A DNA stretch of 64,000 nt. Origin: Patescibacteria group bacterium (lineage in GTDB: Bacteria; Patescibacteriota; Patescibacteriia; Buchananbacterales; UBA6539). Below, one piece after another: positions 41,591-42,669 of this stretch. A model generated the notes under the pieces. The model searched no databases and had not been told where the DNA came from. It saw only the letters and a list, made by a program, of their open reading frames with translations. The number at the start of each line of letters is the position of its first letter. Positions within the stretch are counted from its first letter, which is position 1. Location: NCBI GenBank assembly GCA_028688055.1, contig JAQTYZ010000003.1:66752-130751 (forward strand), read 5' to 3'. Position numbers and translations under genes: made by a program.

Positions 41591-42669
41591 TTAGTAAGTG
41601 TTGAGAATTTATTAGTCTGCTGGGATGAATTTAAGAAGGGGAAACGGAGCAAGTTCGATGTGATGGATTTTGAACGGCATCTCGAGGATAATATTTTCGA
41701 ATTGCACAATGAACTAAAATCGTTGAGTTATCGTCACGGCTTTTATTCAACGTTCAACATTTATGACCCTAAGCACCGGGTTATCAGTAAAGCGAATGTT
41801 CATGATCGATTAGTGCATCATCTTGTATTTAAGGAGCTATGCCGGATTTTCGAACCGACGTTTATTCATCATTCATATTCATCACGTATTGGCAAAGGTA
41901 CGCACTTAGCAGTGACAAATGTGAGTCGATGTTTACGAGCTCGAAGCAGAAATTATACCCAAACGGTGTATGTCCTGAAGTGTGATATTAAAAAATTCTT
42001 TTGGAGCGTGCCTCACCAAAAGCTATTAGCGATAATAAAGCGCCGAATTACCGATGAACGATTTCTAGCATTAACCCGAGAACTTATCGAAAGCTTTCCT
42101 CGGCTCGACTCACAAACGTTCGTTCCGAGAGAGAGAGAGAGAGAGAGAGAGTACTTTTTGTCGCGGCCAAAACAGGAATTCCGATCGGCAACGTCACGTC
42201 ACAAATTTTTGCCAACATATATCTAGATCAACTTGATCAGTTTGTGAAACATACCTTAAAGGTGAAACACTATTTTCGCTATGCCGATGACTTCATATTT
42301 ATTAATGAAGACCCGGGTTACTTAAAGTCGCTTTTAGTAGAAGTAGAGCAATTCTTGGCCGAAAAATTACTATTGCAACTGCATCCGCGGAAAATATCTA
42401 TCCGTAAGTTTAACCAGGGTATAGATTTTTTAGGGTATATTATTTTACCACATTATAGTGTCGTGCGAACCAAAACAAGACGGAGGATGTTTAAAAAACT
42501 ACGGCAACGAAAAACGGAGCTTGAAAATGGGACTATTACCCCGGAGTCTTTTAATCAATCACTGCAGTCGTATCTGGGAATGCTCAAACACTGCGATGCC
42601 TATAAAGTTGAGCAAAAGATTCTAGGAATCTCTGAAAATGCCCTAAAGTCCTTAGAGTTATTAGAGTAG
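41564..42669 (+). CDS. DGR reverse transcriptase; reading frame broken at a (GA)12 tract (two ORFs 41564-42226 and 42244-42669)
   Basis: Motif 2 VLKCDIKKFFWSV upstream; GIPIGNVTSQIFANIYLDQLDQFV and YADDFIFI appear only in the +2 frame after 42151. Confidence 0.85.
42127..42151 (+). repeat. (GA)12 microsatellite inside the RT gene at the frameshift point
   Basis: CCGAGAGAGAGAGAGAGAGAGAGAGAGTAC; all frames encode (ER)n, so +/-1 GA unit toggles the downstream frame. Confidence 0.9.

Follow-up and report, generated by a model that had tools for sequence, protein, structure and literature searches.

A GA-repeat tract as a probable phase-variable switch in the reverse transcriptase of a patescibacterial diversity-generating retroelement

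The diversity-generating retroelement (DGR) studied here lies in a 64,000-nt stretch of contig JAQTYZ010000003.1 from a Patescibacteria group bacterium (the whole stretch analysed is called the window), and its reverse transcriptase (RT) gene is interrupted by a perfect GA dinucleotide tract. Data from the window and its relatives suggest that this tract, (GA)12 plus a final G at positions 42127..42151 of the plus strand, is probably a simple-sequence contingency locus which gates the RT by slipped-strand phase variation. On/off switching of the RT had been proposed in an original prediction made from the letters of the window, and the support for it now comes at the level of the family, from relatives in which the tract recurs, OFF alleles are constrained, tract lengths are polymorphic and unrelated repeats have converged on the same site.

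Both Tandem Repeats Finder (12.5 units, 100% matches) and a regular-expression scan identified the tract, and its position between motif 2/2a and motif 3 of the RT, ahead of GIPIGN and YADD, is as predicted. It is a perfect short-unit repeat inside an open reading frame (ORF), with a unit length not divisible by three, as in known contingency loci. Dinucleotide repeats of at least five units number only two in the 64-kb window, and the count expected for a 16-nt GA run from dinucleotide-preserving shuffles of the window was 0. The N-terminal half of the RT (41564..42126, plus strand, frame p mod 3 = 2) carries motifs 1, 2 and 2a and is covered by a tblastn high-scoring segment pair at query positions 1-200; its frame stays open across the tract until the stop at 42226 (ORF 41564-42226), giving a 220-aa product. 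The C-terminal half (42152..42669, plus strand, frame p mod 3 = 1) carries motif 3 (GIPIGNVTSQ), YADD, motifs 6-7 and the thumb, ends with the stop at 42667-42669 and is covered by a second segment pair at query positions 189-367 at 100%. This half is in the -1 frame relative to the N-terminal half and lacks its own start codon upstream of motif 3. The predicted division of the conserved motifs between the frame of ORF 41564 and another frame therefore holds, and so does the statement that (GA)n reads as (ER)n in all frames. A split protein with two functional polypeptides was considered and rejected, because the C-terminal half lacks a start upstream of motif 3 and in-frame relatives encode one continuous protein.

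To test restoration of the frame, the gene was rebuilt in silico with 9 to 16 GA units. A continuous RT was obtained only at (GA)11 (367 aa) or (GA)14 (369 aa), i.e. after the loss of one unit or the gain of two. The prediction had instead supposed that one additional GA would fuse the two halves, which was wrong in both sign and size, as the (GA)13 rebuild gives a 224-aa product ending at a stop. The (GA)12 allele of the window is most likely OFF.

Except for this frame break in the RT, the DGR of the window is complete. Its target gene is an ORF of 321 aa (39720..40685, plus strand), for which a Pfam search gave no family match. The variable repeat (VR; 40563..40687, plus strand) overlaps the last 123 nt of this gene, terminates with the stop codon of the target ORF, and is a 125-nt direct repeat with 86% identity to the template repeat (TR; 41050..41174, plus strand), at an offset of 487 nt. 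In the alignment of the two repeats, 16 of the 17 mismatches fall at TR adenines and the 17th makes the TAG stop of the target gene, while the 3′ ends are identical and GC-rich. Between TR and RT lies the gene of the accessory variability determinant, bAvd (41216..41590, minus strand; Pfam PF22296, E=1.3e-19, profile positions 6-106 of 107), the 5′ end of which overlaps the RT start (41564) by 27 nt on the opposite strand. The minus-strand placement of avd is also seen in relatives L183 (1939-2289) and L287-L290, and the arrangement of the target gene and its VR is homologous in L183. An RNA extending from TR into the RT gene would include antisense avd, unlike the Bordetella layout. The fused RT matches Pfam RVT_1 (E=1.6e-24, residues 70-293) and contains GIPIGNVTSQ, a motif of the IGNxxSQ type. 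The element thus has a DGR-type RT, an adenine-biased TR/VR pair, a VR at the 3′ end of the target gene and Avd; what the window allele lacks is an uninterrupted RT ORF, since it is split at the tract.

The best protein homologues of the window RT have 62-63% identity, and those that are named come from Patescibacteria; the relatives seen were on Patescibacteria metagenome-assembled genomes (MAGs) and on groundwater or sediment contigs. Exact look-ups of the window Avd (with two start choices) and of the N-terminal half of the RT found no record in protein collections. The fused window RT aligns end to end with its homologues and keeps all 61 invariant columns; decay of the RT elsewhere, which the prediction had named as an outcome that would speak against a switch, was not found. 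The homologues also carry the (ER)n element expected of them, with (RE)n exactly at the tract position in 30 of the 115 top matches and (LS)n instead in one. The tract falls in a loop whose length varies, with the RT2a region on one side and motif 3 on the other. In an AlphaFold model of P0003, a natural in-frame relative with (ER)5.5, the mean confidence (pLDDT) is 88 and the sole internal stretch of low confidence is residues 181-210, the tract region; the best match of this model in the PDB is the Bordetella DGR RT (8ub7_A, TM 0.79/0.87). As modelled, the tract encodes a tolerant surface element, and in-frame changes of its length would therefore be accepted. In viral sequences, a flank-specific pattern for the window element had 0 matches in viral contigs and a generic pattern of tract plus PIGN had 0 matches in IMG/VR; relatives on viral contigs are at most 51% identical, and the tract is in none of the few whose motifs were located by the scan.

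Changes of tract length were found among near-identical relatives. L183, which has a tract of 20 nt (ON), was compared over about 2.9 kb (L183 436-3383) with L162 and L193, which come from two separate samples and have a tract of 18 nt (OFF). They differ only by one GA unit and within the VR, where 19 of the 20 changed positions are at TR adenines, and the TR is identical. In this comparison the VR was rewritten and the tract was changed by one unit faster than any other substitution arose in the ~2.9 kb, and the tract-bearing lineage of L183 shows recent DGR activity. A further length polymorphism was found between L198 and L201.

A census of alleles was then taken for the 90%-identity protein cluster of the L183 lineage, with identical N-terminal halves (15 of its 41 members listed), and the mapping from peptide to tract length was verified. 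Tracts of 16 nt, with an N-terminal half ending QRERES before the stop (OFF), occur on 26 contigs; tracts of 18 nt, with an N-terminal half ending QRERERVKGKFF... before the stop (OFF), on 22; tracts of 20 nt, with a full-length protein (ON), on 10; and tracts of 22 nt, ending QRERERES before the stop (OFF), on 4. In a control cluster that has no long tract (P0008), all 7 of 7 members are full length. Other tract-bearing clusters contain half-genes from GenBank MAGs, e.g. OGE86010.1 and, next to each other, OGE82740.1 and OGE82741.1. Independent assemblies moreover gave the same OFF lengths (L162=L193, L176=L236, L196=L215), which argues against random assembly error.

The repeat at this loop is not always GA. 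In a Ca. Uhrbacteria lineage (L281, L282; P0004 and its cluster) the same RT loop has (CT)14, encoding (LS)n, and GenBank holds for this lineage ON alleles of 400-402 aa together with two kinds of truncated OFF tail. In another patescibacterial lineage the loop has a run of G: with G8 the RT is continuous (L290, 2028-2035; ON, 341 aa), and with G9 it is split (OFF) in three independent assemblies (L287/L288, 2064-2072; L289, 1118-1126). The alignment of L290 with L287 spans 2921 nt and has a single gap and 0 mismatches. Length polymorphism of the kind known from contingency loci is thus present in the relatives, for GA alleles as well as for G8/G9. Because (ER)n, (LS)n and GGG differ widely and yet share one loop, these repeats point to slippage at the DNA level, rather than the encoded peptide, as the property that recurs there. 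A strand-specific role of the polypurine tract in RNA or priming was judged unlikely, as other lineages have the complementary (CT)n or poly-G. At the RT loop of two loci (L192 1092-1130, L238 53-104), (GA)n comes directly after (CT)n and the two form a perfect self-complementary hairpin or cruciform of ~40-50 nt; such palindromes may stem from strand switching at the tract, and (CT)n lineages could possibly have arisen from (GA)n lineages in this way. Two or three GA tracts stand close together in the RT loop of L207 (669-738) and L204 (1542-1578), as CT/TC on the stored strand.

Because both protein databases and the ranking by tblastn are biased towards intact genes, the frequency of the frames was determined from a DNA pattern on metagenome contigs, (GA)6 followed after a gap by codons for PIGN[LV]T[S]Q, in which the upstream frame was ignored. 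This frame-blind scan yielded at least 120 stretches and at least 80 loci (L161-L240), and frame classifications based on motifs and on tblastn were concordant. Among at least 62 non-redundant RT loci of the Patescibacteria type, with both halves and a tract of at least (GA)6, 16 were in frame, 27 were +1 and 19 were -1, which is compatible with a uniform distribution (chi-square p=0.21). Hence 16 were ON and 46 OFF among the 62 matches listed, with both sides of the tract intact and constrained, again as in contingency loci. For tracts of at least 24 nt, only 2 of 19 among the matches listed were in frame (one-sided p=0.024). This scarcity may mean that selection acts against very long (ER)n loops when they are expressed, or that long tracts are a mark of lineages kept OFF.

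The frame break is located at the tract, and other stops were found in only ~4 of 66 loci, some of them due to Ns or to mis-framing in extraction. For pairs in which both members are OFF, the ratio of nonsynonymous to synonymous rates (dN/dS) was 0.07-0.2 in the N-terminal half and likewise 0.07-0.2 in the C-terminal half beyond the break. Between the window and its closest relative, L228 (83-87% amino acid identity, 33-nt tract, OFF), dN/dS was 0.074 and 0.085 for the two halves. Since dN/dS is low in both halves, OFF genes are not decaying, and the OFF state must be either young or leaky.

The tract of the RT has a counterpart in the window. The only other GA tract there is (GA)8+G at 35953-35969. 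It belongs to the gene of an EcoRI-family adenine methyltransferase (PF13651; region 34955-36225), and each of the three frames following the tract ends in a canonical C-terminal motif of the family (PYFRILI, GQRKYARLFIK and GRKIYNRIIIRRR), with triple-overlapping coding around 35970-36025. Homologues with 85-96% identity fall into three length classes (~357, 387 and 421 aa), which correspond to the three post-tract frames; in DNA from four relatives, the tracts were 13, 21 and 23 nt long, compared with 17 nt in the window, and all three downstream modules were conserved. The tract of this gene looks like a three-way selector of C-terminal modules, on the side of the target-recognition domain, and not like an on/off switch. 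The conservation of three frames suggests that in this gene pool GA tracts act as functional selectors, and that they are not artefacts. A contig with a close homologue of the methyltransferase (L283) was examined for the same DGR nearby, and none was found.

In the mechanism we propose, slipped-strand mispairing at replication would add or remove GA units. Changes of three units would merely resize the (ER)n loop, and changes of one or two units would throw motifs 3-7, and with them the catalytic YADD, out of frame. One third of the length classes would accordingly give a full-length RT (ON), and the other two thirds an N-terminal fragment of ~190-220 aa that has no catalytic site (OFF), with the VR frozen. 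From (GA)12 in the window, the ON state would be reached by losing one unit or gaining two. At the level of the population, adenine mutagenesis would then be gated stochastically, so that a minority of cells diversify the target and the rest keep the current variant; bet-hedging, the locking in of a good VR and a limited cost of mutagenesis are candidate benefits. The slippage mechanism and its rate, the inactivity of the RT in OFF alleles and the adaptive benefit are what we infer from comparison of sequences.

Several observations weigh against a switch. The near-uniform distribution of frames is equally expected from leaky expression through slippage or from a near-neutral mutational hotspot. 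Among the 80 best of 585 matches on genome contigs (MAG-derived), by tblastn score, only in-frame tracts were seen, although this sample was discounted as evidence because ranking by tblastn score favours intact genes. For the window element itself, the closest relative is 83-87% identical at the protein level, so that an error of one unit in the contig is possible. Assembly at such tracts is also prone to trouble: in L219 (586-727) a scaffold joins two diverged copies at the tract with NN, and 5 of the 80 listed contigs end within 22 nt of the tract (L216, L220, L218, L184, L235; rough binomial p about 0.001 versus an expectation of 1%). The two copies in L219 were rejected as alleles within one sample, since diverged copies joined by NN are a scaffolding artefact. 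The breaks of assemblies at the tract are consistent with length heterogeneity in the samples, and they also call for caution about chimeras.

The first alternative is that RNA polymerase or the ribosome slips on the GA tract, such that any genomic length yields some full-length RT and the frame is nearly neutral. On (GA)n a shift of 2 nt re-pairs perfectly, and this alternative would account for three equally common frame relations and for purifying selection on both halves, even between OFF alleles; moreover, Quimbyvirus has been proposed to possess a DGR RT that is apparently active although frameshifted (PMC8008677). However, length alleles exist at the DNA level and dominate the variation, and the G8/G9 and (CT)n versions would need a different recoding chemistry. 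There is neither a conserved fixed frame relation nor a canonical slippery site with a stimulator; as the three relations are similarly frequent and none is fixed, canonical programmed frameshifting does not fit. We consider leaky recoding unlikely to explain the tract; it is compatible with the switch as an added leak and not as its replacement.

It was also considered whether the tract is a non-adaptive microsatellite, in which a proto-repeat (AGAGAG = RERE) expands within a loop that tolerates indels, and OFF alleles are a load that is tolerated because the DGR is rarely needed. Relatives without the tract have short GA remnants of 6-10 nt at the site, and the loop from motif to motif is between 126 and 231 nt long. 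The long-tract trait is interspersed on a neighbour-joining tree of RTs with 131 tips, where it requires 23 parsimony changes, i.e. it has arisen and disappeared repeatedly; in-frame alleles show no enrichment, and among long tracts they are depleted. All this would be expected of a non-adaptive repeat. Against it, three unrelated repeat types occupy one loop, and long perfect tracts persist across lineages only 36-60% identical to each other, where interrupting point mutations would be expected if OFF were deleterious. The low dN/dS of both halves and the second GA tract of the window, with a conserved C-terminus in each of three frames, are likewise at odds with it. We therefore regard this explanation as quite unlikely.

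A sequencing or assembly artefact in the window contig would mean that the true allele is (GA)11 or (GA)14 and the RT is intact. Dinucleotide tracts do stutter in PCR-based libraries, and the scaffold of L219 demonstrates assembly trouble at such a tract elsewhere. But most alleles in independent assemblies, drawn from many projects, are OFF, and separate samples share identical OFF lengths, which makes this explanation improbable; even with an error of one unit, the locus remains the same switch. That the interrupted RT belongs to a dead, decaying DGR, with the frameshift as its first lesion, is very improbable, given that no other lesion is present, all invariant residues are retained, TR, VR and Avd are all intact and the differences of the VR are adenine-specific, dN/dS against L228 is low in both halves, and VR turnover in tract-bearing relatives is very recent.

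If the phase-variable switch is extended to the whole group, DGR mutagenesis across Patescibacteria would be gated by an evolved, convergent (GA)n/(CT)n/poly-G switch, with populations alternating stochastically between diversifying and locked states and most cells OFF, and GA tracts in the same mobile gene pool would more generally be frame selectors, as in the methyltransferase, and would amount to a set of GA-tract contingency loci. Here we lean only slightly towards acceptance.

The gene content of the window comprises type IV pilus ATPase and platform genes, LigA, DnaG, a sigma factor, PheS and tRNAs, and the window looks like part of a small bacterial chromosome of the Candidate Phyla Radiation (CPR) kind. 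The DGR lies within an island (window 31806-52051) that follows a tRNA-Asn and a serine recombinase (32461-33750). This island carries at least four DNA methyltransferases (34955-36025, 38704-39552, 47288-48067 and 48027-49334), a terminase large subunit (45349-46845, minus strand), a SMODS/CBASS-type nucleotidyltransferase (51041-52051), a GmrSD_N+HNH gene and ParB-like genes, and looks like a prophage remnant or a defence island.

To our knowledge, DGRs are the only prokaryotic systems of targeted protein hypermutation, and the natural control of their activity is largely open. If the proposed switch is true, repeat length in the RT would be a simple and general layer of this control, and classical contingency loci would be extended to the CPR, organisms not previously known for phase variation. 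It would explain the adjacent ‘hypothetical’ half-gene RTs of CPR bacteria in databases (e.g. OGE82740.1/OGE82741.1 and OGE86010.1), and DGR surveys that demand an intact RT would count too few such elements or wrongly class them as inactive. Roux et al. 2021 (PMC8144416) described DGR clade 2 as cell-encoded DGRs restricted to Patescibacteria and, from metagenomic time series, hypothesised phases of diversification that alternate with ones of purifying selection, for which the switch would provide a mechanism; their paper makes no mention of a repeat tract or of RT switching. In a full-text literature search that took in the main DGR surveys, neither a repeat tract nor phase variation was found to be reported for a DGR RT. 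Both components, DGRs and phase variation by simple-sequence repeats (SSRs), are already known, and it is their combination in a DGR RT for which no published description was found.

SSR contingency loci are familiar from phase-variable mod methyltransferases, adhesins and lipooligosaccharide genes in Haemophilus, Neisseria and Helicobacter. The RT tract resembles them in being a perfect intragenic non-triplet repeat, with ON and OFF alleles in otherwise identical strains and intact coding on both flanks. It differs in that the gated gene is the engine of targeted hypermutation, i.e. a mutable switch would sit on a mutator; the hosts are moreover Patescibacteria and not host-adapted pathogens, and the type of repeat varies by lineage at one loop. 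In Salmonella mutL, tandem repeats switch a general mutator gene. There too a slippage-prone repeat toggles a gene controlling the supply of mutations, but mutL acts on the genome-wide rate via mismatch repair, whereas the RT performs site-specific retro-mutagenesis of a single target gene.

Among DGRs, that of Bordetella phage BPP-1 has an RT that is a single uninterrupted ORF and an avd that is co-directional. The window element shares with it the RT fold (PDB 8ub7), IGNxxSQ, Avd and adenine-specific TR/VR differences at the 3′ end of the target; it differs in having avd on the opposite strand and a hypermutable tract in the RT between motifs 2a and 3. Quimbyvirus has a DGR RT that spans three overlapping frames, for which two programmed translational frameshifts at fixed sites have been proposed (Benler et al. 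2021, PMC8008677). In both cases the DGR RT is not one ORF, and the DGR of Quimbyvirus is evidently active. Unlike in Quimbyvirus, the frame relation described here varies between alleles and tracks the length of the repeat, which suggests a switch at the level of DNA.

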